Assembly: GCA_964472425.1 (NCBI GenBank)
Contig: CAYYLF010000001.1
Coordinates: 6,595 to 70,594 of the forward strand
Reading direction: 5' to 3'
Length of the DNA: 64,000 nt
From: an uncultured Muribaculaceae bacterium
Lineage (GTDB): Bacteria > Bacillota_I > Bacilli_A > RF39 > UBA660
The notes below the pieces were generated by a model. The model ran no database searches and had not been told where the DNA came from. It saw only the letters and a list, made by a program, of their open reading frames with translations. Positions within the stretch are counted from its first letter, which is position 1. Each line of letters starts with the position of its first letter. A program made the position numbers and the translations under genes. Positions 1,499 through 43,072 of this stretch are shown here, piece by piece.

Positions 1499-2275
1499 TT
1501 AGAGTGTGGAAGTGAGGTCTAAAAAGACATCGAGGCCTAGTTCTTCGGCTCTATTCGTGAGGTCGAATCCGTGTCTTTTTAGGATGGTTTCTAATTTTAT
1601 TCTGTCGCGGCTTTTGAGATTGTTGCCAATCGTCTTGCGCTTAAATTGGAAGGAGTCTCTGAGGAGTCGTTTGAATTTTGGGTAATCTATTTCTTGCCGC
1701 TTTTTTGGGGTAAGTTTGAGGACAGCACTATCGACGTTGGGGGCAGGAATAAATTTTTCGCGGGTGACGTCGGTCACTTTTTGTATTTCGTAATGGTAAT
1801 TTAAGAGTACAGTCATGTATCCGTATTCGCGATGGCCCGGTGTAGCAAGAAATCGCTCGGCAACTTCTTTTTGAACCATTATGGTAAAGCCGTTGTGCTC
1901 TATTTCCGAGTCGATTATGTGTTCTATTATCGGGGTCGTAATGTAGTATGGCAGGTTTCCGACGATATAGAGATTTTCGTAGGAGTATTTTTGTAAAAAT
2001 TTGAAAATGTCGACTTCCAAAAAGTCGGAATAGACGATTTCGGTCTTTTCATCTTCGAGAGGAAGCAAATATTTTTTAGTGTCTTCGTCTATTTCGAAGG
2101 CGACGAGTTGAGCACGATAATTTTTGAGTTTTTTTGTGATGGCTCCCCCACCCGGGCCTATTTCGATAATCAAGTCATTTTCGGTCGGGTTTATCGAGCT
2201 CACAATTTTGTCTATAGTTTGGTCGTCACGTAGGAAGTTTTGCCCATATTTTTTTTTGAATTTGAATTTAGTCAT
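1499..2275 (-). CDS. rsmA: 16S rRNA (adenine1518/1519-N6)-dimethyltransferase RsmA/KsgA
   Basis: Motifs KYGQNFL, EIGPGGGAITKKL and NLPYYITTP. Start placed at the internal MTKFKF, which has a GAGGTG RBS; the ORF-track start would lack an RBS. Confidence 0.9.
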   Translation of the reverse strand: MTKFKFKKKYGQNFLRDDQTIDKIVSSINPTENDLIIEIGPGGGAITKKLKNYRAQLVAFEIDEDTKKYLLPLEDEKTEIVYSDFLEVDIFKFLQKYSYENLYIVGNLPYYITTPIIEHIIDSEIEHNGFTIMVQKEVAERFLATPGHREYGYMTVLLNYHYEIQKVTDVTREKFIPAPNVDSAVLKLTPKKRQEIDYPKFKRLLRDSFQFKRKTIGNNLKSRDRIKLETILKRHGFDLTNRAEELGLDVFLDLTSTL

Positions 2276-2324
2276 TTTTTTCACCTCTTCAATAGTATCA
2301 CATTTTGGAATAAATAAAAAGAAC

Positions 2325-2873
2325 TCACGAAAGCTCGCGAGTCCATCCAAAGCGAAGGATGTCGTAGTTTATCTTTTTGCTTCCGACTTTCGTGATAGCA
2401 GTATCGACCGAATCGACGAGTAAGTCGAGAGTCGTGCCGGTAACTCCACGGTCGAGGACTATGGCAGTTATTTCTCCCGTCGAAGAAAGGGTGTCGTTTT
2501 TAAATCTAACTATGGAACCACATGGCAAGCTAGTCGAAGAAGCAACTATGCGGACTGTCCCGTACTGTGAATCGTCGTAAGTCGTCGTACCATCGAGAAC
2601 GTTTTGTCTGTTGCAGCCAAGGAAACCGGAGCAAAGTGGACAGTCGGCTACATAGCCAGTTAAAGTACCATTGTAAGTGTCGAGAACCGTGTTTAAATCG
2701 GTGGCCCGGAAGTTTTGGATGACTTTAGCCATCGCATTGAGGTCGACGTTTTTGTTCAGATTGGTATTGGTCGATGAAGTTACGGTCGTGATACTGCTGT
2801 TTTGGAAACAGAGGATGACTCCGATTAAGAGGCTAGCGCATATCACTTTGTAGAGCGTCTTTACTTTTTTCAT
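2325..2873 (-). CDS. Secreted 3D-domain protein (YabE-like, MltA/RlpA-type double-psi barrel)
   Basis: Signal peptide MKKVKTLYKVICASLLIGVIL. C-terminal motif AIVLDRGVTGTTLDLLVDS resembles the 3D domain. Its position between tatD and rsmA matches B. subtilis yabE. Start at M17, which has an AAGGAG RBS. Confidence 0.65.
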   Translation of the reverse strand: MKKVKTLYKVICASLLIGVILCFQNSSITTVTSSTNTNLNKNVDLNAMAKVIQNFRATDLNTVLDTYNGTLTGYVADCPLCSGFLGCNRQNVLDGTTTYDDSQYGTVRIVASSTSLPCGSIVRFKNDTLSSTGEITAIVLDRGVTGTTLDLLVDSVDTAITKVGSKKINYDILRFGWTRELS

Positions 2874-2917
2874 CCATCTTCTACTCCTTACTGTGCAACA
2901 GTTTATCATAAAAGTGG

Positions 2918-3673
2918 TCAAATGTCAAAAAGGTCATGTACGTTCTTTTGGGTGATGGCGCTCACTTCTTCTAGAGTGAGATTTAGTTCACGATCGACGA
3001 AGGTGGCAATGTGTCGAATGTTGGCCGGTTCGTTGGTGGTTCCTCGGACTGGTTCGGGGGCGAGGTACGGCGAGTCGGTTTCTAAAAGGATGCTTTCTAC
3101 TGGAATGTTTGCTAGCACTTCTTTGAGTCTGGCATTTTTGAAAGTTAGGACCCCTCCGAATCCGAGTTTGTAACCCATCTTTATATATATGTTGGCTGTC
3201 TCTAGTGAACCGCTAAAACAATGGATGGAACCGGTAACTGATGGATATTTTTTGAGAATGGCGATGGTATCTTCGGTTGCGTCGCGAGAATGTACTATGA
3301 CCGGCTTATGATATTTTTCGGCGAGAGCGAGTTGACTTTCGAAGAGTTCCTTCTGTCTTTCTCGGTCACACGGTTCGTAATGGTAATCGAGGCCTATTTC
3401 TCCAATTGCCACTATCTCGTCGATGGCGTTTTCGATTATACTCAGCTGTCCTTTTTCGAAATTATCGATGTCTTCCGGATGAAACCCGAGGGCGGCATAT
3501 ATACTTTCATATTTTTGTGCGAGAGCGAGAACCTCGAGGTTCGATTCACGGTTGGAGCCATTTACTATCATTTTCGTTATGCCGGCAGCTTTAGCATTTT
3601 CGATTATCTTGTCGATGTCTTCGTAGTATTCTTTCAGTATATGACAGTGTGTATCTGTAAACATTTTAATCAC
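2918..3673 (-). CDS. tatD: TatD-family metal-dependent DNase
   Basis: N-terminal FTDTHCH metal-binding motif. Sits between metG and yabE-like, as in Bacillus. Confidence 0.9.
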   Translation of the reverse strand: MIKMFTDTHCHILKEYYEDIDKIIENAKAAGITKMIVNGSNRESNLEVLALAQKYESIYAALGFHPEDIDNFEKGQLSIIENAIDEIVAIGEIGLDYHYEPCDRERQKELFESQLALAEKYHKPVIVHSRDATEDTIAILKKYPSVTGSIHCFSGSLETANIYIKMGYKLGFGGVLTFKNARLKEVLANIPVESILLETDSPYLAPEPVRGTTNEPANIRHIATFVDRELNLTLEEVSAITQKNVHDLFDI

Positions 3674-3715: not shown

Positions 3716-3729
3716 ATTTCCCGGGAAAT
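3716..3729. promoter_or_regulatory. Perfect Noc-binding-site (NBS) palindrome ATTTCCCGGGAAAT in the metG-tatD intergenic region
   Basis: Exact 14-mer, identical to the copies in the 15.5-16.5 kb array. Confidence 0.55.
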
Positions 3730-5319: not shown

Positions 5320-5545
5320 AATAAAAAAATCACGAATTTAAGGACGAGTTGGAGACCCGCGGTACCACCTTAATTCATGATAATCATGCACTTTATCCTT
5401 TAACGCAGGTATACGTTTGAACTCCAAAACCATGTTCGATTGCCCTATCCACTATTTTGCACCAACCAATAGTTCTCTTGGCGACTCGGGCTAATTTACT
5501 CTTTTCTTCTCAGTTCAATACGTCAATAATATCACAGAAGACCGG
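5320..5545 (-). ncRNA. T-box riboswitch leader regulating metG (tRNA-Met sensing)
   Basis: The minus-strand RNA contains AATTAAGGTGGTACCGCGGG at 5357-5376, which matches the T-box consensus AAnnAGGGTGGnACCGCG. This T-box forms the 5' arm of a terminator, UCAUGAAUUAAGG...CCUUAAAUUCGUGA followed by UUUUUUU, placed just upstream of the metG RBS. Confidence 0.8.
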
Positions 5546-6112: not shown

Positions 6113-9100
6113 CTATTTTACTTGATTATTGATAGTATCCAAGAGTTCGTACAGATAGTAGATGTAGTTTTTATTGATGAGGTTAGTATTCAGAGAGATG
6201 CGAATTTCCTTGTTTTTGTAGCTTATCTCGAATTTTGGGCAGATGTTGTAGCTTTGCAGGAACAATTTTTCCCCGTCGATGCGGTTTGAGATGTCTTCCG
6301 GAAGTACTATCGTTATTTTCTTTTGCATTTGAATTATCGTCTTTATACCGAGGGTGCGAATCAAACCTTCTGTACAACGCTCGAGCATGTATATTTCCAT
6401 GGTCTCATCTATACGCCCAAAGCGGTCTTCGAGCTCGGATTTGACGGCTAAAAAATCGGTTTTAGTAGTAATCGTATTTATGAGTTTGTGTATCTCGATT
6501 TTGATGTTTTCGTCCGAGACATAATCATCTTCGATGTGCGTGGCCGTATTGAAGATGACGTTCGTTTCTTCAGGTTCTTCTTCGAATGTCCCTTCGAGTT
6601 TGCCTACTTCTTCGGTGACCATCTTAGTGTAGAGGTCGAGGCCGACGGCATCGATGAAGCCGGCTTGTTCACTTCCCAAAAGGTCGCCCGCCCCGCGAAT
6701 GGCGAGGTCGCGCATGGCTATTTTGTATCCACTTCCGAGCTCGGTGAATTCTTTAATCGATTCTAGTCGTTTGGTAGCAGTTTCCGTGAGCATATGAGCC
6801 GGCTTGTACATGAGGTAGGCATAGGCGATTTTGTCACTTCGGCCCACACGGCCTCTTATTTGGTAGAGTTGGCTAAGACCGAAGTTGTCGGAGTCTACGA
6901 TGATTATAGTGTTGACGTTCGGAATGTCGATTCCAGTTTCGATGATGGTCGTACATATCAAAATGTCGTATTCTCCTTCTATGAAGTTTTCCATAATCGA
7001 GCCGAGTTCTTCCGAGGACATTTGACCGTGACCACAGACTATTTTTGCTTCGGGGGTGAGTTTCTGTATTTTGGTTTTGTAAGTATTCAATTCGTCTATT
7101 TTGTTGATGAGGATGAACACTTGGCCCGAACGAGTCATCTCTTTGTAGATGGCATCTTTGATAATGAGATCGTTTTCTTCGATGACGTAGGTCTGTATCG
7201 GGTAGCGGTTCACAGGTGGCGTATCGAGGACGGATAAGCTTCTGAGTCCACTCATGGCCATTTTGAGTGTGCGCGGGATGGGCGTGGCCGAGAGGGTAAG
7301 GACGTTTACATCGTTCTTCATCTTCTTTATTTTTTCTTTGTGAGTTACTCCGAAGCGTTGCTCTTCGTCGATTACCAAGAGACCGAGGTTTTTGTACTCG
7401 ATTTTGTCGTTTAGAAGTTTGTGTGTTCCTATGACTATGTCTACTTTTCCAAGTTTGAGGTCTGTGAGAATGCGATTCACATTTTTGGTCGAGACGTATC
7501 TATTTAAGAGCTCGATGCGGACTGGAAAGTCGGAGAATCTCTCGAGAGCACTCGTGTATTGTTGTTTGGAGAGGATGGTCGTCGGACAAAGGTAGGCAAC
7601 TTGAAAACCGTTCATTATCGTTTTGAACATCGCTCGGAATGCTACTTCGGTTTTTCCGTATCCGACATCGCCACATAGAAGTCTATCCATAGGGGCCACT
7701 TGTTTGAGGTCGTAGTCTATTTCTTTGATGGTCTTTTCTTGGTCTTCTGTGAGAGTGTACGGGAAGTCGAGGGCGAATTTTATTTCGTCTTCGAAGTCTT
7801 TGTACGGCGTGCCGATTGCTCTTTGACGATTCGAATACAGTTTTAGAAGTTCACCAGATATATCCCTTATTCGGTTTCTCGTTTCGCTTTTCTTTTTGGC
7901 CCAGGCGGTCGAATTCAGTTTGTTTAGTTTAGGAGCTCGACCGAGGTTAGACGAGTATTTGTAGAGTCGGTTTATCTTGTCGACGGGAAGGTAGACTTTG
8001 TCGTTTCCCAAATATTCGAGTTCGATATAGTCTTTCATGAGTTCGCCGTTTTTAATCGTTTTGAGGCCACGGTATATTCCTATTCCGTGCAGCTCGTGAA
8101 CGACATAGTCGCCTATAGAGAGGTCCGTGTAGTTTTTGACTTTGCGACCGACTTTTATAGTATTTTTATATTTTATGTCTCCGCGCGTGGTGCGGTCTAT
8201 ATCGGACGGGGCAATCAGTACATAGTTATCGAAGATGAAACCATGGCCCGCGGTCGAGTCAATTATGTTTATCTTATTTGGGAAGATGTCGTTCGCATTC
8301 GTTATGAGGGCATCGGGGAATAGGTCCATAATCTCATTCTTTTGTTTGGAGTTTTCGAGCGCAAAGACAATCGTTTTGGTGGAAAGCTCTTTGAGGCAGA
8401 ATTTCTTTAGTTGTTCGAAGTTGCCACCAAAGTTTTCCATCTCTTTAGATGAGTAGACCAATGAGTCAGGACGGGAGATAGCATTTATAGTTTCGAGTTT
8501 GAACGATTTGGTGAATGCTATTTCTTCGAAACTGAACATATATTTCGTGTCGGCGGCAAGTTCTTTGCTCAAGTTGTATTCGAATCGTTCGGTTTCGAGG
8601 TTTTTGTAAGCGAGTTGAATTTGCGATTCGTCTATCAAAAAGCGAGTTTCGTTTTGGAGATAGTCCATGATACTGTTCGGCTCGGTGATGACTTCTTCAT
8701 TGAACCTTTTCAGTTCGGCAGACTCGATTGTGGATGTCGTCAATTGGGTGTTTTCGTCGAACTCTTTAATCGAATCGAGGTCGTCGCCGAAGAATTCTAG
8801 TCGGATCGGAGTGTCGCGGTCGACGGGAAATATATCTATGATAAAGCCCCGAACGGCATATTCACCTGTAGTCGTGACCAACGATTCGCGATGGTATCCG
8901 AATTCTTCGAGTTTTTGCAAAATTATTTCCCGGGAAATAATCGAGGGGGAAGGGTCGATGATTAAACTCTGTTGTTCATTTTTATTGGGTAGGTATTTTA
9001 GGTATCCCATGAGCGAAGTGACTACTATGTGTTTTTTCTTTTCGCGAGTCAACTTTTCTAGAGTTTCTAGACGTTTTATTTTTAGGTCTGGAGATACGGC

Positions 9101-15480: not shown

Positions 15481-15510
15481 TTTTATCATATATTATTGGT
15501 TATTGCAAAT
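15481..15510 (-). promoter_or_regulatory. Promoter for ffs-tadA-dnaX (TTGCAA, 17-nt spacer, TAAAAT); its -35 abuts parS-1
   Basis: Seen in the reverse complement, CATTTGCAATAACCAATAATATATGATAAAATTTAGAA. The predicted TSS coincides with the predicted 5' end of the SRP RNA. Confidence 0.45.
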
Positions 15511-15525
15511 GTTTCACGTGAAACT
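15510..15525. promoter_or_regulatory. parS-1 TGTTTCACGTGAAACT (15 of 16 vs consensus)
   Basis: Compared with the B. subtilis parS consensus TGTTCCACGTGAAACA. Confidence 0.7.
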
Positions 15526-15542
15526 TAGTGCAGCTACTAGTT

Positions 15543-15556
15543 ATTTCCCGGGAAAT
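15543..15556. promoter_or_regulatory. NBS-1 ATTTCCCGGGAAAT (perfect)
   Basis: Exact match to the published Noc-binding consensus. Confidence 0.7.
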
Positions 15557-15664
15557 AATTAGAGTGGATGGCTCAGCGATTTGCCAAAATTTAAAATTGC
15601 CAAATATTAAATTTGGTAATTTGGATATAGCTATAAAACTTTTGCGGAATCATTTCAAATCGCA

Positions 15665-15680
15665 TGTTTCACGTGGAACA
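15665..15680. promoter_or_regulatory. parS-2 TGTTTCACGTGGAACA (equals consensus read on the other strand), followed by TGTGAAAAC
   Basis: Exact match to the B. subtilis parS. Confidence 0.8.
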
Positions 15681-15730
15681 TGTGAAAACCAAGCTTTTAT
15701 TTTTGGCTCAGTTTATTAGAATCATTAATT

Positions 15731-15744
15731 ATTTCCCAGGAAAT
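15731..15744. promoter_or_regulatory. NBS-2 ATTTCCCAGGAAAT (one central mismatch)
   Basis: 13 of 14 match. Confidence 0.55.
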
Positions 15745-15772
15745 ATTTTTTATTAACCAGTTATCTAGTTAA

Positions 15773-15788
15773 TGTTCCACGTGAAACA
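15773..15788. promoter_or_regulatory. parS-3 TGTTCCACGTGAAACA (exact), followed by TGTGGAAAA at 15791-15799
   Basis: Exact parS with an abutting DnaA-box-like 9-mer. Confidence 0.8.
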
Positions 15789-15916
15789 TATGTGGAAAAG
15801 TGACAATTTATAAATTTATGAGATTATAGCGTATGAATAATCTAAATTGTAATAAATTCTCCAAAGTTGCTGCTCACACAATATATTAGAAAATGACTGC
15901 AAGTCAATTGTTAAAT

Positions 15917-15930
15917 ATTTCCCAGGAAAT
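15917..15930. promoter_or_regulatory. NBS-3 ATTTCCCAGGAAAT
   Basis: 13 of 14 match. Confidence 0.55.
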
Positions 15931-15953
15931 AGCAATATTTGTGTTACACTTAA

Positions 15954-15969
15954 TGTTCCACGTGGAACA
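15954..15969. promoter_or_regulatory. parS-4 TGTTCCACGTGGAACA (perfect palindrome), followed by TGTGGAAAA at 15972-15980
   Basis: Perfect 16-bp palindrome. Confidence 0.8.
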
Positions 15970-16102
15970 AGTGTGGAAAAGTGACGATAACCGGCACTTT
16001 ATGAAAAAGCAAAATATGAGAATCTAATTACTTTTAGGCTTATCACGTGCAATTTCTCATAACTTATTAAAAAATAGAAAACAGTAAATAAGTTAGTCGA
16101 AT

Positions 16103-16116
16103 ATTTCCCGGGAAAT
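16103..16116. promoter_or_regulatory. NBS-4 ATTTCCCGGGAAAT (perfect)
   Basis: Exact match. Confidence 0.7.
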
Positions 16117-16132
16117 AAGATAATTGAATTCA

Positions 16133-16148
16133 TGTTCCACGTGGAACA
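16133..16148. promoter_or_regulatory. parS-5 TGTTCCACGTGGAACA (perfect), overlapping TGTGGAAAA at 16149-16157
   Basis: Perfect palindrome. Confidence 0.8.
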
Positions 16149-16264
16149 TGTGGAAAACCCCAAGAAATCGGTAACTTTTATCAAAAAAAGTTTTAGAATG
16201 AAATTAGTAGTTATTCTACAATTGATTATTTGCACGGTCACTTAAGTTTAAATCGCTGACAAAT

Positions 16265-16278
16265 ATTTCCTGGGAAAT
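16265..16278. promoter_or_regulatory. NBS-5 ATTTCCTGGGAAAT
   Basis: 13 of 14 match. Confidence 0.55.
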
Positions 16279-16287
16279 AATTATTAA

Positions 16288-16303
16288 TGGTTCACGTGGA
16301 ACC
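16288..16303. promoter_or_regulatory. parS-6, degenerate: TGGTTCACGTGGAACC (13 of 16)
   Basis: CACGTG core with a degenerate left arm. Confidence 0.4.
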
Positions 16304-16387
16304 TGTAGAAAAGTAAGTTGGTTTACTATTACGTTCGGTTATTAAATATTAATTGGAAATATAAAATAGTAATCGCTATCTAGTCGA

Positions 16388-16403
16388 TGTTCCACGTGGA
16401 ACA
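16388..16403. promoter_or_regulatory. parS-7 TGTTCCACGTGGAACA (perfect), with TTTTCCACA at 16423-16431
   Basis: Perfect palindrome. Confidence 0.8.
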
Positions 16404-16510
16404 TCTAGTAGCTTCATTGGTGTTTTCCACACGTACTATGTTTTAGCTACTAAAAATCAAATTTGGCAAATTTGATTTTTGGCAAATTGATGCACTCCTC
16501 ACCCCTAATT

Positions 16511-16524
16511 ATTTCCCGGGAAAT
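16511..16524. promoter_or_regulatory. NBS-6 ATTTCCCGGGAAAT (perfect)
   Basis: Exact match. Confidence 0.7.
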
Positions 16525-16530
16525 AATATA

Positions 16531-16563
16531 ACAAAAAAAACTGAGTTTTCCACACTCAGTTTT
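16531..16563. terminator. gyrA terminator, bidirectional (CTGAGT-TTTCCAC-ACTCAG flanked by A8 and T4)
   Basis: 6-bp stem with a T-run on the minus strand right after the gyrA stop. The loop itself contains a TTTTCCACA DnaA-box-like motif. Confidence 0.6.
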
Positions 16564-16570
16564 AAAACAT

Positions 16571-19192
16571 CTATTCTTCTGTCTCCATTTTTTCATTTTC
16601 CACAGTTTCTTGCTCTGTTACTTCATTGGAGTTTTCCACAGTTGAATTTACTGGCACATTTTCTTCTTGCGCTTCAGTGATTTTTTCCACAACGGAAATC
16701 GATGAGACGGTTTGATTGTCTTTGAGATTAATCAGTCTAACGCCTTGGGCATTTCTACTCAATTGAGATATACTCGTAGAATCGAGTCTTATTACCATTC
16801 CAGAATCGGTAATGATTACGATATCCTTGTCATCATCTATAATATTAAATGATGCAATTCCTCCGTTCTTTTCCGTTATATTAAGGGCTTTTACTCCTTT
16901 GCTTCCACGACGAGTTTCTCTAAATTCACGAACAAATGTTCGCTTTCCATATCCTTTCTTGGTAACTATCAGAAGATTCGTGTCTATATCACAGACATCG
17001 GCACATATACATTCTCCATCAGGCATATTGATTCCTCGAACTCCTGCGGCTGTTCTTCCCATGATTCTTATCTCTGCTTCGTCGAAGAGAACGGTACGTC
17101 CGTTGGTAGAGCCTAGAAGTACTTTGTTTTCTCCAGTTGTCTTTTTGACTGCTATGAGTTCGTCGTCATCTTTCAAAGTGATACTTATTTTACCCGTTTG
17201 TCTGATGTTTTCGAAGTCTTCGATAGCTGTACGTTTGACTATTCCCTTTTTCGTTGCGAATAGTAAGTATTTAAGTTCTTCCTCTTCTTTGCTTATCTTG
17301 ATGATAGAGCTAATCGTTTCATCCTTTTCGATATGTAAAAGGTTGATAATAGGAAGGCCTTTCGATTGACGGTTAAATTCCGGTATTTCATAGCCCTTTA
17401 TACGATATACTTTACCTTTGTTTGTAAAGAACAAGATGTAGTCGTGTGTCGATACATTGACCATCAACTTGACATTGTCTTCTTCGTTCGTACTGATTCC
17501 TTTGACTCCTACGCCTCCACGATTTTGGGTTTTATATGTGTCCGCGGCGAGTCGTTTGATGTATCCCTTTTCTGTAAGGGTTATCATGCTATTTTCTTCT
17601 GGTATCAAAGATTCGTCTTCGATGTATTCGATAGCCGTCATATCTATCTTCGTACGGCGTTCATCGGCGTATTTGTCTTTGATTTCGGTAAGTTCTTTCT
17701 TGATAATATCGTTTACTTTTTGCTCAGAAGCTAGAATACTCTTGAGTTCTTCGATGAGAGCGAGTAAATTACGCAACTCTTCTTCGATTTTGGCTCTTTC
17801 TAAACCGGTCAATCGACGAAGTTTTAACTCGAGAATACTATCGGCTTGTATTTCAGAGAATCCGAATCTTTTTATCAACTTTTCTTTGGCTATCGAATCG
17901 CTTTCGGCCTCTTTTATTATTTTGATTACTTCGTCGATGTTGTCGAGAGCGAGTTTGTATCCTTCCAAGATGTGAACGCGTTTTTCAGCTTTATCTAGTT
18001 CGAATTTAGTACGGCGAACGATGACTTCTCTTTGGTGGTCGATATATTTACTGATTATACTCTTGAGACCTAGAGTCTTAGGAACGCCCATGTCGAGCAT
18101 CAAGAACATAATACTGTAGGTCGTTTGGAAGGCCGTGTGTTTGTACAGGTTATTGAGTACGACTTGTGGATTAGCATCTCTTTTGAGTGTAATCGTTATT
18201 TTTATGCCATTTTTCAAATCCGTGTGGTAGTCAGAGATACCGTCTATCGTCTTATTATGGACTAATTCTGCTACTTTATTTTTAAGTTCACGCGTATTGA
18301 TTCCATACGGAACTTCGTCGATGATGATGTAACTTTTGCCGTGTTTTTCTTCGATGATGGCTTTGCTTCTTATCGTTATGGTTCCGCGCCCCGTCTCGTA
18401 GGCTTGCCTGATACCACTGTTTCCGAGTATTATAGCGCCAGTCGGGAAGTCTGGTCCCTTAATGTATTGCATGAGGCCAAGTGTATCGATGTCGGGATTG
18501 TCTATATAGGCTATACAGCCATCTATCACTTCGCCCAAGTTATGAGGCGGGATGTTAGTGGCCATTCCGACGGCTATTCCGGTCGTACCGTTTACCAATA
18601 TGTTAGGGAAACGAGATGGAAGAACCGTGGGCTCTTTTTCAGATCCGTCAAAGTTGTCGTCGAAGTTAACCGTGTTTTTATTGATATCTCTCAGCAGTTC
18701 CAACGATATTTTAGATAACCTAGATTCCGTGTAACGCATGGCGGCGGCTCCATCACCTTCGATATTACCGAAGTTTCCGTGACCATCGACAAGCATATTT
18801 CTGAAACTGAAGTCTTGGGCCATACGGACCATAGCTTCATAGATAGATGAGTCGCCATGTGGATGGTATTTACCCATGACGTCTCCGACTATACGGGCAC
18901 TTTTCTTATGCGGCTTATCTGGAGTATAGCCAGATTCGTACATCGAATAGAGTATTCTTCGGTGAACAGGCTTCAGACCATCTCGCAAATCCGGTAGAGC
19001 ACGGGCCGTGATGACACTTAGAGAATATTCGATAAAGGAGTCTTCGATTTCTTTGACGATATCGTTGTGTTGTAGTTTATCGCGTTCCGGAAAATCGACG
19101 ACGACTTCTTCTTCAGTAGATTCGACTTCATCGGTCGATTCGGTCGTTTCCAATTCTATAGTAGATTCTAGTTCTTTGTTTTCTTCTTCCAT
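16571..19192 (-). CDS. gyrA: DNA gyrase subunit A
   Basis: Active-site region [20 protein letters not shown], the catalytic Tyr region and a GyrA-box. Start placed at MEEENKE, which has a GGAGG RBS; the ORF-track start has none. Both N- and C-terminal tails are acidic. Confidence 0.95.
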
Positions 19193-19202
19193 TTTAAACC
19201 TC

Positions 19203-22233
<3,031 letters not shown>

Positions 22234-22341: not shown

Positions 22342-22812
22342 TCATTTTTTTCTTTTGGGAGCTTTTCGTTTGCGTATGACTGCTTCGAGCCTCGTCGCTC
22401 GCAAAACTTGGTTGTCGATTATCTTGTGAGAAACGGCAACTTGCAGCTGAAGATTGTTTTGAAATCTAATCAAACTGTCGTTGGCATAGGGCTGATACGA
22501 GACGATGTTTTTGAGCGATAACCAGGTACAATCATTTTGGCGGGGACTCGCCGTGGGGAAGAATATCAAGCTATGGGAGTCTTCTATTAATATGGGAGCT
22601 TTGTGAGTCACTCCTATCATTTCGAGGGTACCTTTTTTGCGACCGGCATAAGAACTTCCAAAGTATTCACAGTTATCGGCAATAATTCTGTTCGCGTTTT
22701 TACTTACGATGAAGACAGCACCGCTTTCGTAAATTTTGGCTTTTCGTTTGCTCAGTGGGATGATAGCTAGTGTGTCGTCGTTTATCAAATAGTTTTCTTT
22801 CATCTTTTTCAC
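22342..22812 (-). CDS. comK: Competence transcription factor ComK homolog
   Basis: Ours reads CEYFGSSYAGRKKGTLEMIGVTHKAPILIEDSHSLIFFPTASPRQNDCTWLS. B. subtilis ComK reads CRFFGSSYAGRKAGTYEVTKISHKPPIMVDPSNQIFLFPTLSSTRPQCGWIS (aligned from memory). Confidence 0.7.
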   Translation of the reverse strand: MKKMKENYLINDDTLAIIPLSKRKAKIYESGAVFIVSKNANRIIADNCEYFGSSYAGRKKGTLEMIGVTHKAPILIEDSHSLIFFPTASPRQNDCTWLSLKNIVSYQPYANDSLIRFQNNLQLQVAVSHKIIDNQVLRATRLEAVIRKRKAPKRKK

Positions 22813-24108: not shown

Positions 24109-24249
24109 TTTTTTTCCTTCTTTCTTATTTAATATTATATTATTATTCATATATTCTGTGGAATTTGTGGAAAAGTGCTTTTTTATCCACGGACAAGTGG
24201 GTTTGAGTCCTGTCGAAATGTTGTGGAAAAGTAAACACTTATCGACAGT
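24109..24249. other. oriC DnaA-box cluster II (dnaA-dnaN spacer)
   Basis: TGTGGAATT at 24147, TGTGGAAAA at 24157, TTATCCACG at 24173 and TGTGGAAAA at 24212. Confidence 0.8.
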
Positions 24250-25674
24250 TTACCCAATGTTATTTTTTATCTCTCGGATTATTTCTTTGAGTTGATTGTT
24301 GACCTTGAGGTCGGCTTCTATTTTATCACAAGCGTACATGATAGTCGAGTGGTCACGGTTTCCGAATTCGAGTCCTATCTTGGGGAACGATTCGTCCGTG
24401 TAGTTTCTACAAAGATAGATAGCTATTTGCCGCGGGTAATTGATATTTGCCGTTCGCTTTTTGCTCTTCAAATCTTCGACAGTTATTTTGTAGTAGTCGG
24501 CGACCGCTTTTTGAATTTTGGCTATATTCGAATCCATATAAACCGAACTTTTGAGGTAATCTCGTAAGGCTTCGTTCGCGAACTCGAGGTCGATTTTGTG
24601 CGGGCCCATCATGGCCGCATAGGCGTAGAGTCTCGTTATCGCGCCTTCGATATGTCGTACGTCGTTTTCACTGTTGTTGGCGATGTATTCGACGACTTCC
24701 TCTTCGACGAGGTTGGCGACCGCATGGCCAGCCATCTTGTTGCGAACTATCCGCTTTTTGAGGTCGATGTCCGGAGGATAGATGTTGACGGTCAGTCCCC
24801 AGCTGAATCTCGTAATGAGCCTTTCTTCTAGGAGCTTTAAATCGTCGGGACTGCGGTCCGAACTGATAATAATTTGTTTGTTCATATCATATAATGTATT
24901 GAAGGTATGAAAGAATTCTTGTTGAGTCTTCTCGGCCTTCTCGAGAAATTGGATATCATCTATCATGAGGACGTCGATGCCTCTATATTTTTCTTTGAAC
25001 ATTTGAATGCTCTTCGAATCTCTATTCATATTGATGGTCGTGAATTCCGATTTGAATGTCTCGCTCGTCACATAGAGAACGCGTTTGTTCGAATGAGCTG
25101 TGATATAGTTTCCTATCGCATGCATCAGGTGAGTTTTTCCTAATCCACTCTTGCCGTGAATGAAAAACGGATTGAAAAGCTTGCCTGGCTGCTCGGCCAC
25201 ATGGCGCGCGCCTTCGAAAGCGAGTCTGTTGGAATTTTCTCCGACTATGAAGTTTTCGAAAGTGTATTTTCCCGAAAGATTCGACTCGAAAGGTTGTGTA
25301 TAAGTGTGTGTGTTTTGCACAGGTGGTGCGGCTTGCCTAGTAGATGGAGGTTCATTGGTGGGTGGCGTCTCGTCTTTGGCCGTGGCCAATTCTTCTTCCA
25401 AAATAAATTCGATATTACAATTTTTGCCGAGAATCGATTCCATCAATTCTTCGATGGTGTCGAGGTAACGCTTTATGAGGGAGTCTTTTATATATTGGGA
25501 ACTGGTCATAATCGTGATAACTTTGATAGATTTGTTGTTTTGAACTGCATCGTCGATTTTGTAAATTTCGCAATGTTTGAACCACGAGTTTATCGATACG
25601 ACAGAGACTCTTTTCTCAAGCAATCCAAGAAAATTTTTCCAAATCAAACTGTTCTCTTCATTCATGAACCTCAC
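24250..25674 (-). CDS. dnaA: Chromosomal replication initiator DnaA
   Basis: AAA+ Walker A GKSGLGKTHL, and C-terminal DnaA signature in the helix-turn-helix region. Confidence 0.95.
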   Translation of the reverse strand: MRFMNEENSLIWKNFLGLLEKRVSVVSINSWFKHCEIYKIDDAVQNNKSIKVITIMTSSQYIKDSLIKRYLDTIEELMESILGKNCNIEFILEEELATAKDETPPTNEPPSTRQAAPPVQNTHTYTQPFESNLSGKYTFENFIVGENSNRLAFEGARHVAEQPGKLFNPFFIHGKSGLGKTHLMHAIGNYITAHSNKRVLYVTSETFKSEFTTINMNRDSKSIQMFKEKYRGIDVLMIDDIQFLEKAEKTQQEFFHTFNTLYDMNKQIIISSDRSPDDLKLLEERLITRFSWGLTVNIYPPDIDLKKRIVRNKMAGHAVANLVEEEVVEYIANNSENDVRHIEGAITRLYAYAAMMGPHKIDLEFANEALRDYLKSSVYMDSNIAKIQKAVADYYKITVEDLKSKKRTANINYPRQIAIYLCRNYTDESFPKIGLEFGNRDHSTIMYACDKIEADLKVNNQLKEIIREIKNNIG

Positions 25675-25989
25675 CCCGGTTTCCTGTTAATTTCATTTTA
25701 ACGTAAAACAAAAAAAAGGTAAAGATGCAAATTGCCAAAAAAGAAATTTACAACATTTTTCGACAAATTTTGTGGAAAACTTGTGCTTGTCATTTCCTGT
25801 AAATAAAAGGAAAATTCAAATTATCCACAATTTCCACAAAATTGGTGCGTCCACAGTGTGGATAAGTTATCAACATACTGTGGAAACGATGTTGAAAAAT
25901 TTGTTGAAAACAATCGACCTAATTGACTTGACTTTTGTTGGGATGGTATAATATAATACATGTGAATTTTAGATGTGGAGGTGCAGAAA
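25675..25989. other. oriC DnaA-box cluster I with AT-rich region and rpmH promoter
   Basis: TGTGGAAAA at 25771, TTATCCACA at 25821, ATTTCCACA at 25830, TGTGGATAA at 25857 and TGTGGAAAC at 25879. Promoter TTGACT, 18-nt spacer, TGGTATAAT at 25923-25952. Confidence 0.85.
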
Positions 25990-32965: not shown

Positions 32966-34117
32966 GTGAATAATGAACAAGTTCAAGAGATATTTGTCGA
33001 AGATATCATACCTAATAGATTTCAACCTAGGCTCACTTTCGATGAGAAGGCATTACAGGAACTGTCCGACTCGATAAAAGTCCACGGGGTCATTCAGCCC
33101 TTGGTGTTGAGGAAAGTCGGGAACAAGTACGAGATAATTGCCGGGGAGCGTAGGTACAAAGCATCATGTATGGCGGGATTAAAGAAGGTACCCGCGATTG
33201 TGCGCGAGCTAACGGACAACGAGAGTGCGGAAATCGCTTTAATCGAGAATATTCAAAGGAAAAATTTATCCAGTATAGAAGAGGCTCAGAGTTACAAGAA
33301 TCTCTTGGAAAGAGGTTATTTGACTCAGGATGAGTTGGCGAAGAAGTTGGGAGTGTCTCAACCTACTATTGCGAATAAATTGCGGCTTTTGAATCTTTGT
33401 GACGAGGTGCAGAATGCCCTTTTGAACGAACAGATTAGTGAGCGGCATGCGCGGAGTTTACTCCAAATTACTAATCCGGATGAACAGAAGAAGATGCTCA
33501 ATCGCATAGTGAAGGAGCGTCTGACGGTCAAACAGTTGGATAACGAAATCAAGAAGTTGTCGCAAGCAGATAGCGAAGCGGCTGGACAGGCTTCGGGAGA
33601 TAATTCTGGAGGAGGAATGGTTATGGAACCAAATGGACAGAATGTAGAAACGGGTATGAATGGCGTTCAGGAGCCACCAAAGCCTACGAAGAATATCTTC
33701 GGTTTTGCGATGGAGCCTCCTACGGATTTGGAGACTAGTGCACCGAATTTGACGGTAGGTGAGGAAGAGTTCGTTCCACCAATCAGTTTCAATCCGTTTG
33801 GGGGCGATACACAGAACAGTGTCCAACCCAACGAGACGGTTCTTCCACCGGTCAGTGAGCCGGAAACTATCGAAACGTTCGATATGTTTGGAGATGTCAT
33901 GAAGCCAGAGGAGCCAGCACCTAGTGCACCGTTCAGTTTCGATGCAGGAGTCAATCCTCAAGGTGCGCCGGTGGCAAGTGCTCCGCGCAGTGTCGGGGAC
34001 GAGATAAACAGCATCAGAGAAGCCGTCCGCGGAGCCGAGGCCGATGGTTTCCGAGTAGAATTAGAAGAGTACGATTTCGAAGATATGTATCAAATCGTGA
34101 TAAAACTCAAGAAGTAA
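32966..34117 (+). CDS. noc: ParB-family CTPase with Noc-type DNA-recognition residues (Noc-like); long disordered C-terminal linker and Spo0J-like terminal dimerisation helix
   Basis: ParB N-domain and GERRY CTP-binding motif at 60-64. HTH region VSQPTIANKLRLLNL...ISERHARSL is closer to B. subtilis Noc (GQSTIANKLRLLKL...ITERHARAL) than to Spo0J (SRPHIANHLRLLTL...LSMGHGRTL). It directly follows rsmG, as noc does. GTG start with an AAAGGGG RBS. Confidence 0.75.
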   Translation: MNNEQVQEIFVEDIIPNRFQPRLTFDEKALQELSDSIKVHGVIQPLVLRKVGNKYEIIAGERRYKASCMAGLKKVPAIVRELTDNESAEIALIENIQRKNLSSIEEAQSYKNLLERGYLTQDELAKKLGVSQPTIANKLRLLNLCDEVQNALLNEQISERHARSLLQITNPDEQKKMLNRIVKERLTVKQLDNEIKKLSQADSEAAGQASGDNSGGGMVMEPNGQNVETGMNGVQEPPKPTKNIFGFAMEPPTDLETSAPNLTVGEEEFVPPISFNPFGGDTQNSVQPNETVLPPVSEPETIETFDMFGDVMKPEEPAPSAPFSFDAGVNPQGAPVASAPRSVGDEINSIREAVRGAEADGFRVELEEYDFEDMYQIVIKLKK

Positions 34118-34752: not shown

Positions 34753-35500
34753 TTAAGCAATCAGTATAGTGTTTTTTAATTTATTGAGCCGTTCTAATGA
34801 AATGCCTGTGATGCCCATGATATCTTCTAAAGTGTACTTCTTTTGAAGCATCTTTTGGGCATCTTCTTCTTTGACAGTAGCAAGACCTTGTTCGATTCCT
34901 TGTTCCAGCCCTTGTTCCAGCCCTTTTTCGAGACGGTTGTACTTCTTTTCGATGTTCGGCAAGTATACATCTATGAAGATTATCTTGACTCTCATTCGTT
35001 TGCCGTCCGAGGCGTATGAAATTTTAATCGTATCCGTCTCACCTTTGAAGACGAAGTTGTTCATGTTCAGTTGAAAGACCGGCACATATATCGTTTCGAC
35101 TTCTTCTTGCAAGTCTTTGGAACTTGCAAACTCAGAGTACAGTTTGTTAACGTATTCGACATTTCTCTCTAGAGTGTTCGTGTTGTTCATCTCGAACGAG
35201 AGAAGAATGTTACCGAAGCGAGCGACAAAATCACCAGTGCGTTCACGAGATGTGAGTTTTTCTTTGCTGAAGACATTCTTGTAGAGCTGCATTTCTCTTT
35301 TAAGTTGTTCGAAGCTCACGTTTAGAAACTTCGAAAAGAGGTAGCAAGCGAATTCTCACGTCTTCTCAGTTTGAAACATCATCTTGAACGGTCCATCGGC
35401 TAGAGTGTTCACCATTTTACAGTTTTCTTCTAGTCTTATGCTACTCTTGTAGATAGGTGTACGGTCGAGAGATGTACTCTTGAGTAGGTACACCCAAAAT
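34753..35500 (-). pseudogene. Degraded Rpn/YhgA-like PD-(D/E)XK nuclease and putative transposase. An N-terminal fragment (MVNTLADGPFKMMFQTEKT*) and a C-terminal 188-aa fragment are separated by stops
   Basis: The C-terminal EKGLEQGLEQGIEQG repeat and the MGITGISLERL helix are typical of the Rpn family. The upstream in-frame stops and the N-terminal fragment were read by hand. Confidence 0.45.
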
Positions 35501-42207: not shown

Positions 42208-43072
42208 ATGGTGAAGGTACTCACATGTCTTTCGCGTCGCAGGGCGGTGATGAAGTTGAACAAAGAAAATAAGACAGTCGTACAGGCGAAGTTTTTGCAC
42301 AATTTCTTCGTCACTAAACTGTTGAGAGACGAGAGTTTGAAAGATTATCTTCAATTTGATTCTACACAAAGCGACTGGTGTAGCTCTCGAGAAAATAAAG
42401 AAGGACTTCAGACTTCTCGACATAAAGATAAGCAAGGCTAGTGGCATCAAAGACGAAGAAGTAGACTTGATTGCCAAGTGCGACGAGTATATCTTCAACA
42501 TAGAGGCCAATCGTTTGAACAGAAAATACATAATAAAGAAGAATACCTCCTACATTTGCAATCTAATCATGAGACAAACCGAAAACGGAATTAAGACGAA
42601 TTATCAGAATATAAAGGGAGTATATCAAGTGTGTTTGAATCTTTATGACCATTTCAGAGTAGGAAAGTTCGTATATAATTCTACTATTATGGAAAAAGAC
42701 TTACGACTTTCTAGAACGGACCTGGCAAACATTACAGATATAGACATAGATAAATTATCTAAAATAGATTATAATACTATCAAAGAGAAGAAAGACTCGC
42801 TCGAGTACTTGCTGTACATATTCGCGAACAGTAATCACGAAGAATTAGACGAAATATACGAAGGAAGTGAAATTATGAAAAGAGTAAAAGAGAAAGCGTA
42901 CAACTTAGAAAAGAATGCCGACAGATACCTGATATACAGTCACGACGACATGATGAAGGCCATCGGTGAAGAAGAAGGAGAAGAAAGAGGCCAAGAAAGA
43001 GAAAAAATAGCAAGTGCCCGCAAGATGCTCATGAGAAAATTTGAAATAGAAGACATAATGGACATCACTTGA
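42208..43072 (+). pseudogene. Frameshifted Rpn/YhgA-like PD-(D/E)XK nuclease and putative transposase (77-aa N-terminal ORF plus 238-aa ORF in the +1 frame)
   Basis: The two overlapping ORFs are in different frames (42208-42441 and 42356-43072). The C-terminus EGEERGQEREKIASARKMLMRKFEIEDIMDIT has the Rpn-family tail. Confidence 0.45.

Follow-up and report, generated by a model that had tools for sequence, protein, structure and literature searches.

A compact, probable parS centromere interleaved with Noc-binding sites beside gyrA in an uncultured lineage of gut Bacilli

In this study, we analyzed a 64-kb stretch of DNA (contig CAYYLF010000001.1; the whole stretch is called the window hereafter) and found that the non-coding spacer between gyrA and ffs, the gene for the small signal recognition particle RNA, contains a dense array of seven parS palindromes, the loading sites of ParB clamps, and six Noc-binding sites (NBS). 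The array is real and unusually compact, and it is most probably the chromosomal centromere of an uncultured lineage of gut Bacilli. The reading that we prefer, with a probability of roughly 0.7, is that the spacer is a compact ParB-loading centromere, that a second, Noc-like clamp would load at the NBS, and that a DnaA-box cluster restricted to a sub-clade is laid over the same DNA.

Arrangement of parS and NBS in the window

Motif counts in the window were compared with expectations from shuffled sequences. First, a scan with the canonical 16-bp parS palindrome TGTTNCACGTGNAACA (up to 2 mismatches) revealed seven sites in the spacer, five exact and two near-exact, against 0.17 expected, and none elsewhere in the 64-kb window; the array thus holds all parS there. 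Second, the NBS scan was based on the 14-mer ATTTCCCGGGAAAT, whose T/A flanks make the 16-bp NBS, and returned eight sites (six in the array and two outside) against 0.01 expected. All six array copies bear the T/A flanks, and the palindrome is that of the known Noc-NBS system (tATTTCCCGGGAAATa). Together with 15 copies of the DnaA-box variant TGTGGAAAA (0.62 expected), these numbers exclude chance as an explanation of the array. A preliminary description of this DNA had counted seven parS, five of them exact to one of two spellings, interleaved with six NBS, three of them perfect, and these counts and their coordinates hold. The sites are listed below (no strand is assigned to any of them); L001 is the closest relative, with a GyrA 86% identical to that of the window.

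15510-15525: parS-1, TGTTTCACGTGAAACT, 1 mismatch; immediately upstream of the -35-like hexamer of ffs
15542-15557: NBS-1, TATTTCCCGGGAAATA, perfect 16-mer (14-mer from 15543); ffs-side border; kept in L001
15665-15680: parS-2, TGTTTCACGTGGAACA, exact; reverse complement of TGTTCCACGTGAAACA
15730-15745: NBS-2, TATTTCCCAGGAAATA, 1 mismatch (14-mer from 15731)
15773-15788: parS-3, TGTTCCACGTGAAACA, exact
15916-15931: NBS-3, TATTTCCCAGGAAATA, 1 mismatch (14-mer from 15917)
15954-15969: parS-4, TGTTCCACGTGGAACA, exact
16039-16054: decayed parS remnant, CTTATCACGTGCAATT, at the second-parS position within unit 3 (from sequence and unit alignment)
16102-16117: NBS-4, perfect (14-mer from 16103)
16133-16148: parS-5, TGTTCCACGTGGAACA, exact; kept with its flanks in L001
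16264-16279: NBS-5, TATTTCCTGGGAAATA, 1 mismatch (14-mer from 16265)
16288-16303: parS-6, TGGTTCACGTGGAACC, 2 mismatches at outer positions
16388-16403: parS-7, TGTTCCACGTGGAACA, exact
16510-16525: NBS-6, perfect (14-mer from 16511); gyrA-side border past the terminator; kept with its flanks in L001
3716-3729: NBS outside the array, perfect; in the tatD-metG spacer
8925-8938: NBS outside the array, perfect; inside mfd

Read from gyrA, the order of NBS (N) and parS (P) is N P (P) N P N P N P N P N P, an alternation that is among the most regular of all related arrays. The NBS at 3716 and 8925 are consistent with a dispersed NBS set besides the array.

The array (15505-16530) is close to the origin of replication, with gyrA on one side and ffs on the other. 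Beyond ffs lie tadA, dnaX, ybaB and recR, and on the gyrA side gyrB, recF, a comK-like open reading frame (ORF), dnaN and dnaA (24250-25674), followed by the divergent block rpmH-rnpA-yidC-jag-mnmE-mnmG-rsmG, gene orientation flipping at ~25.7-26 kb. From the positions of these genes and of the DnaA boxes, dnaA is therefore 7.7 kb away from the array, and the cluster of boxes that precedes dnaA is ~9.2 kb away; the distance of some 9 kb from dnaA given earlier fits that cluster but not dnaA itself. The elements that border the array are as follows:

16571-19210, minus strand: gyrA; the array begins directly beyond its 3' end
16537-16563, minus strand: intrinsic-terminator-like hairpin of gyrA, with a TGTGGAAAA box in its loop
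15480-15508, minus strand: promoter-like sequence of ffs, TTGCAA-17-TAAAAT, TG-extended; the -10 block is kept in L001
15394-15479, minus strand: ffs (Rfam)

The promoter-like match of ffs ends 1 base from parS-1, in agreement with the earlier remark that the promoter abuts this site. In L001, parS-1 is missing and the promoter-proximal site is an NBS. Regulation or silencing of ffs-tadA-dnaX by ParB spreading is a speculative idea.

Conservation of the array in related genomes

To examine the same region elsewhere, we used relatives selected by GyrA, as contigs of one genome per species (80 gyrA loci). All of these are metagenome-assembled genomes (MAGs) of uncultured gut 'Bacilli', and they include Clostridium sp. 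CAG:710, CAG:433, CAG:451, Candidatus Ventrenecus, Mycoplasma sp. CAG:611 and UMGS 'Tenericutes'. Conservation was counted over the 55 relatives with at least 1.5 kb past gyrA, for parS with at most 1 mismatch within 3 kb. At least two parS were present past gyrA in 53 of the 55 (median 5, range 2-18), the exceptions being L053 and a Paenibacillus outgroup. L053 (CALWAL010000002.1) is the sole in-group relative that has 10 kb past gyrA yet neither parS nor NBS, which represents either loss or relocation of the centromere. Altogether, 362 parS were found in the arrays of the relatives versus a single one in the other 1.19 Mb of their sequence, and none in 1.1 Mb around the Noc-like gene (described below) in 83 further loci.

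The sites are kept in these arrays and the spacers between them are not. Between the window and L001, both border NBS, two of the parS, ffs and its -10 region stand out as conserved islands in an AT-rich spacer that is otherwise unalignable. A logo of the 362 parS extends the site to an 18-bp palindrome, A-TGTTYCACGTGRAACA-T (ATGTTYCACGTGRAACAT), with no other flank conserved. A long-read contig of 1.03 Mb (ERZ28751742 contig_12937, GyrA 85% identical) has the order gyrA-[P P N P (P) P P]-ffs in 750 bp. Therefore, the centromere-like character proposed in the preliminary description is borne out by both the recurrence of the parS cluster among the relatives and one long-read assembly. The slot is somewhat variable: 26 relatives have the array between gyrA and ffs, and ~19 have it just past ffs (L013, L014, L019, L008, L018 and ~14 others, in which ffs directly follows gyrA), and what is kept is the neighbourhood of the array, not its exact slot.

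The same data bear on the view that the array is the remnant of a mobile element, a repeat resembling miniature inverted-repeat transposable elements, or a misassembly. The region is repetitive, and 25 of the 80 contigs break within 1.5 kb past gyrA. However, the same locus with the same two palindromes recurs in 53 independent assemblies and in the long-read contig, the spacers are unrelated with the palindromes alone retained, no BLAST hits of the array to plasmids or phages were obtained, and the array contains no transposase gene. A mobile-element or misassembly origin is thus effectively refuted by the conservation pattern. The array itself accounts for the breaking of short-read MAG contigs after gyrA in these organisms.

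Growth of the array and placement of the NBS

The array had been described as a series of ~185-bp tandem units. The spacing from NBS to NBS in the window is indeed regular (188, 186, 186, 162 and 246 bp), but such a unit was rejected here: Tandem Repeats Finder detected no 185-bp tandem repeat in the window, and when the five NBS-to-NBS units were aligned, they shared the sites and a few flanking bases, with unrelated spacers. A 185-bp repeat is thus not detectable in this genome, in which the sites are kept and the spacers are not. Head-to-tail units recognizable by similarity do persist in relatives, where tandem repeats of 110-408 bp with 77-98% identity were found in 23 of 68 arrays. Some of these duplicated units are composites of parS and NBS, as in L038 with a 136-bp unit in four copies. 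Therefore, the arrays grow by duplication, after which the sites alone are kept. The decayed parS at 16039-16054 suggests that the units of the window once carried two parS each.

Two further searches for array components gave nothing that is shared by the lineage. The window contains paired ATTTGCCAAA / AATTGCCAAA repeats, 16 bp apart, which form an inverted pair bracketing the array:

15579-15604, plus strand: paired ATTTGCCAAA / AATTGCCAAA repeats
16461-16487, minus strand: paired ATTTGCCAAA / AATTGCCAAA repeats

Matches of this type number 16 in the window against 5.8 expected, with a further copy at 25730 in the oriC region upstream of dnaA. No relative has the paired ATTTGCCAAA repeats, which are unique to this genome. 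A further conserved array motif was also rejected, since 9-mer enrichment across arrays gave the ffs sequence alone.

As to the NBS, their density is 0.65/kb in the arrays versus 0.04/kb outside, a 16-fold enrichment. At least one NBS is present in 41 of the 55 arrays and at least two in 25; the other 14 have none, so that interleaving is common but not obligatory. The start-to-start distance from an NBS to its nearest parS peaks at 20-40 bp (41 of 99). In addition, the first site after gyrA is an NBS in 27 of 53 arrays versus 11.6 expected (permutation p < 1e-4). Thus, the interleaving of the two site kinds, as first described for the window, is non-random in enrichment, in close pairing with parS and in the frequent occupation of the gyrA-side border.

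These observations help to weigh two other views of the NBS. On the first, the array would be a centromere for ParB only, in which the NBS are passengers, either copied with the units or derived from parS (two changes per half-site are sufficient), the DnaA boxes are incidental and the site kinds have no joint function. This fits the 14 arrays devoid of NBS, which include the largest one (L060, with 18 parS), the NBS copies found elsewhere near the origin at 0.02-0.04/kb, the composite parS+NBS blocks visibly duplicated in L038, L037 and L068, and the rarity of DnaA boxes in most relatives. On the other hand, passengers would not be expected to be 16-fold enriched and mostly perfect, to occupy the gyrA border far above their share of sites, or to repeat the 20-40 bp pairing despite unrelated spacers; moreover, the end NBS are kept between the window and L001 and the surrounding DNA is not. 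We therefore consider this view unlikely. Enrichment, pairing and the gyrA-side border together suggest that the NBS are placed by more than hitch-hiking, and they could serve as a boundary or roadblock for ParB, or recruit partners of the tail of the Noc-like protein to the origin.

The boundary role is the substance of the second view, according to which Noc-like clamps bound at NBS would confine sliding ParB and shield gyrA and the ffs-tadA-dnaX promoter; equally, the ParB complex might confine the Noc-like clamps instead. The outermost site on the gyrA side is an NBS in the window, in L001 and in the 27 arrays mentioned above (median 83 bp past gyrA), the arrays of the window, L001, L006 and L054 begin and end with an NBS, and the promoter-proximal site of L001 is an NBS as well. 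However, at the end away from gyrA, 46 of 53 arrays close with a parS, and the many arrays free of NBS do not fit such a role. It also weighs against this view that chromosomal ParB spreading in Bacillus subtilis has little effect on transcription. We regard a boundary function as rather unlikely.

A Noc-like protein predicted to read the NBS

A single gene of the ParB family was found in the window, 16 kb from the array and in the same slot as noc of B. subtilis:

32966-34117, plus strand: Noc-like ParB paralogue of 383 aa, directly after rsmG, with Q-K-N-R specificity residues

The protein possesses ParB_N and HTH_ParB domains with intact GERRxRA and ENxQR boxes. It scored 293.8 bits against the NCBIfam Noc model TIGR04285 (cut-off 315), and residues 5-204 only were matched. 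Alignment to B. subtilis Noc places Q-K-N-R at Q158/K164/K169/R186. Specificity for NBS is determined by Q173 and R201 together with a permissive lysine at 179 or 184, and parS-specific variants invariably retain R173 (Jalal 2020, PMC7383237). The Noc-type residues (Q173, R201 and a permissive lysine) are all present, and by this rule the protein is therefore predicted to read NBS and not parS. The exact Q-K-N-R variant is absent from the supplement of Jalal 2020 (PMC7383237). Q-K-x-R residues are shared by each of the 38 homologues retrieved and by 82 of the 83 genes at related loci. Hence, the Noc-like protein invoked in the preliminary description is indeed encoded near the array and has the residues of a cognate reader.

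The nucleoid-occlusion role attached to it is a different matter. The start of the protein aligns to residue 25-26 of Noc and lies 52 bp from rsmG; no upstream extension is possible, and the protein is therefore without the membrane-targeting helix, so that the sequence does not support nucleoid occlusion of the B. subtilis kind. In the AlphaFold model, residues 1-205 form a body of ParB N-terminal and HTH domains and residues 206-340 a disordered linker; these are followed by a small, confidently modelled domain of a helix and a hairpin, which ends in ...EEYDFEDMYQIVIKIKK. The linker of ~135 residues contains motifs conserved in the family, F-rich ones among them (NIFGF, PPTDLE.SAPNL, FNPF and ETFDMFGD). 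A Noc-like protein with a motif-bearing tail in place of any membrane helix suggests a second, non-membrane mode of Noc.

The parS-type ParB and the number of readers

Scans of essentially all window ORFs with Pfam and NCBIfam detected neither a second ParB nor a ParA, and when Spo0J was used as a tblastn query on the window and the 80 gyrA loci, the Noc-like gene alone was returned. Exact matches to window proteins, sought in order to lengthen the contig, gave no record. Likewise, no parAB was found beside the Noc-like homologues (rsmG locus) of clade members. In a metagenome scan, parAB was located beside noc in 4 of 83 more distant loci and the Noc-like gene stood alone in the other 79: a paralogue with R-x-x-G residues follows the Noc-like gene directly, together with Soj, in L134 and L148, and is nearby in L159 and L163. 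When the ParB of L148 was used as a seed, many low-GC contigs of gut Bacilli were recovered in which parA-parB is detached from noc and is part of the block whiA-parA-parB-DUF951-...-ychF-rpsF-ssb-rpsR-rplI-dnaB (L164-L179). The ancestral origin cluster of Firmicutes includes parA, parB and noc (PMC8136486), and the whiA-parA-parB-ychF block is a dislocation of this cluster. Two side observations concern these blocks. The ParB-block protein P0166 occurs in 892 blocks of the collection, so its species is very common. In L167, a reverse transcriptase and a bAvd-like gene (2024-3423), resembling a diversity-generating retroelement, lie beside whiA-parA-parB.

Because canonical parS is strictly conserved, this genome very probably encodes a parS-type ParB, most likely outside the window and in a whiA-parA-parB-ychF block as in related MAGs. 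Staphylococcus aureus provides a precedent, possessing Noc and ParB without ParA (PMC5540599).

An alternative would be that the canonical ParB has been lost and that the Q-K-N-R protein recognizes both parS and NBS. Such a protein would explain why no other ParB-family gene was found in the window or, in 79 of 83 related loci, beside rsmG, and why no ParB was tied to the clade. Hybrid sites were sought in 81 sequences, made up of the window and the 80 gyrA loci, with either base allowed at the two discriminating positions. Among 462 sites, 315 were pure parS, 145 were pure NBS, 2 were single-base variants and none was a parS/NBS hybrid, although a dual-specificity dimer should tolerate mixed half-sites; this points to two homodimeric readers. 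Deep mutational scanning showed R173 in every parS binder and, in most dual-specific variants, T or S at position 201 (PMC7383237), unlike the Q173/R201 combination here. A separate R-x-x-G ParB is also kept in related lineages. Taken together, a single reader of both sites appears highly improbable.

DnaA boxes in and around the array

Ten of the 15 TGTGGAAAA copies lie between 14668 and 16691 (~2 kb) and four around dnaA. The ten copies, within 1 mismatch of TTATCCACA and outside oriC, are of the same variant as in oriC, in line with the preliminary description: copies at 24166, 24222 and 25771 flank dnaA. The boxes in these 2 kb form two groups of opposed orientation, listed here together with the boxes of oriC:

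15791, 15972 and 16149 (15791-16157), plus strand: three TGTGGAAAA variants, each 0-2 nt past a parS
16423, 16546, 16596, 16632 and 16683 (16423-16691), minus strand: five TGTGGAAAA boxes in opposite orientation
24166-25875, no strand assigned: oriC DnaA-box clusters, TGTGGAAAA at 24166, 24222 and 25771 plus consensus boxes, on both sides of dnaA

Most parS had been said to be directly followed by this box, which is true of an exact TGTGGAAAA for only 3 of 7 parS. Of the five boxes in minus orientation, the array contains one, the terminator loop of gyrA another and the codons of the gyrA tail the other three. Accordingly, the three to four copies previously reported in gyrA codons as T-V-E-N are present as to three, which read V-V-E-K once and T-V-E-N twice, and the fourth is the copy in the terminator loop.

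Conservation analysis indicated that the boxes, first presented as a component of the array, are not a feature of the lineage. Over 38 relatives, box density was 0.54/kb in the array zone versus 0.11/kb in the background, and at least three boxes were present in only 4 of the 38, mainly in the closest one. L001 has five boxes, some just beside parS and some in the gyrA tail, and L005 has boxes beside parS. A lineage-wide DnaA box flanking parS was rejected, as the logo of 362 sites adds the A/T pair alone. We read the boxes as an origin-proximal DnaA-box cluster specific to a sub-clade, laid over the centromere and outside its conserved design. Titration of DnaA is one plausible role of this cluster, and a link between DnaA and the ParB and Noc-like complexes is another.

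A model for the array and points against it

Under the preferred reading, each parS would load a ParB clamp bound to cytidine triphosphate (CTP) (PMC7333895, PMC7053999, PMC8429893), and many parS per ~1 kb would give a high loading flux and a dense partition complex beside oriC. Since no ParA is encoded at the origin, loading of SMC and organisation or separation of the origin are probably the main outputs, in the manner of S. aureus and Streptococcus pneumoniae. The interleaved NBS would load the Q-K-N-R Noc-like protein as a second, paralogous clamp, and one kilobase may thereby nucleate two ParB-family complexes, commonly with an NBS at the border that faces gyrA. In this genome and its closest relative, DnaA probably binds the box cluster that overlaps the array and the gyrA tail.

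Several points weigh against this reading. Occupancy of parS, NBS and boxes is in all cases predicted from the DNA sequence. Counts from different relatives cannot be treated as phylogenetically independent, a quarter of the arrays (14 of 55) do without NBS, the N-terminal amphipathic membrane helix of Noc is missing from the proposed reader of the NBS, and no ParB contig could be tied to the window's own clade. With regard to the boxes, their scarcity among relatives (4 of 38) counts against a general role, two of the three boxes adjacent to parS belong to one duplicated block of 39 nt, and the box resembles a parS half-site (TGTGGAA vs CGTGGAA) and could hence be a by-product of partial duplication.

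A stronger version of the preferred reading would be a hybrid centromere, in which ParB and Noc-like clamps are placed side by side on purpose and the Noc-like tail recruits division, replication or SMC factors. The tail would then replace part of the function that ParA or membrane-bound Noc has in other Firmicutes, and DnaA would be drawn into the same complex in this sub-clade. We regard this version as improbable.

Comparison with known systems

Clusters of origin-proximal parS are known from Corynebacterium, Myxococcus and Caulobacter, and such clusters are spread over roughly 10-200 kb, partly inside genes. Up to 20-23 origin-near parS occur in Streptomyces coelicolor and Listeria innocua (PMC7333895). 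The array resembles these clusters in its canonical 16-bp palindrome, its multiple origin-proximal sites and its likely role in ParB loading, SMC action and segregation. In contrast, its seven sites occupy 0.9 kb of one non-coding spacer (up to 18 sites in 1.8 kb in relatives, with a median spacing of 126 bp), no other parS is present in the surrounding 20-60 kb, and the sites are interleaved with those of a second ParB-family protein.

With the Noc-NBS systems of B. subtilis and S. aureus, the window shares the identical site, the gene adjacent to rsmG, the Noc-type residues and further NBS scattered near the origin; the lack of a ParA gene at the origin is another point in common with S. aureus. 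Noc of S. aureus restrains DnaA-dependent initiation (PMC5540599). Unlike both Noc proteins, the protein found here has no membrane helix, a disordered linker of ~135 residues and a Noc score below the cut-off, and NBS are concentrated inside a centromere besides the scattered copies.

The plasmid centromere sopC of F consists of 12 tandem 43-bp repeats. The array is similar to it in that ParB-family sites are packed closely in non-coding DNA and were made by tandem duplication, whereas it is chromosomal, has canonical parS, two site kinds and units diverged except for the sites, and shows no similarity to plasmids. DnaA-box clusters outside oriC are also known, such as the DnaA-box clusters (DBCs) of B. 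subtilis and datA of Escherichia coli. The ten oriC-type boxes in 2 kb near oriC are comparable and compatible with titration or regulation of DnaA; however, the present cluster overlaps a centromere and the gyrA tail, occurs in no genome other than this one and its nearest relative, and has no evident IHF-type site.

In summary of these comparisons, parS clusters, NBS and DnaA-box clusters are each already known singly. What is new is a chromosomal centromere compacted into one intergenic kilobase and conserved across an uncultured lineage, the systematic juxtaposition of parS and NBS, of which this is the first case found, the predicted Noc-like reader without a membrane helix, and the overlap with a DnaA-box cluster in this genome. 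No published description of such an arrangement was found in full-text literature searches, which did not cover the survey of Livny et al. 2007. The clustering and number of parS are an explicitly open question of the field (PMC7333895). This lineage represents a natural extreme, with all parS of the origin region in one intergenic kilobase, 2-18 sites between species and ongoing duplication. Since both ParB and Noc slide on DNA as CTP-gated clamps and their sites are nearly identical, the arrangement offers a ready-made test bed for roadblocking between clamps, co-condensation and the upkeep of site discrimination (no hybrids exist).

Other features of the window

The remaining features of the window are listed below:

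5337-5520, minus strand: T-box leader (Rfam, 101.6 bits), upstream of the methionyl-tRNA synthetase gene
22342-22812, minus strand: ComK-family ORF (Pfam E = 4e-41), between dnaN and recF in the origin gene cluster
34753-35319, minus strand: Rpn / PD-(D/E)XK transposase-like ORF
42356-43072, plus strand: Rpn / PD-(D/E)XK transposase-like ORF

The ComK-family ORF has the same position between dnaN and recF in relatives L081 and L180. The two Rpn / PD-(D/E)XK ORFs flank the region past the Noc-like gene, in which synteny with B. subtilis ends and soj-spo0J is missing, and they may be marks of rearrangement there. SpoIIR is also encoded in the window. The GC content of the window is 41.8% versus a median of ~27% at the gyrA loci of the relatives. 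At the dnaA/rpmH divergence the plus-strand GC skew keeps its sign, and AT skew alone flips, at ~24-28 kb.

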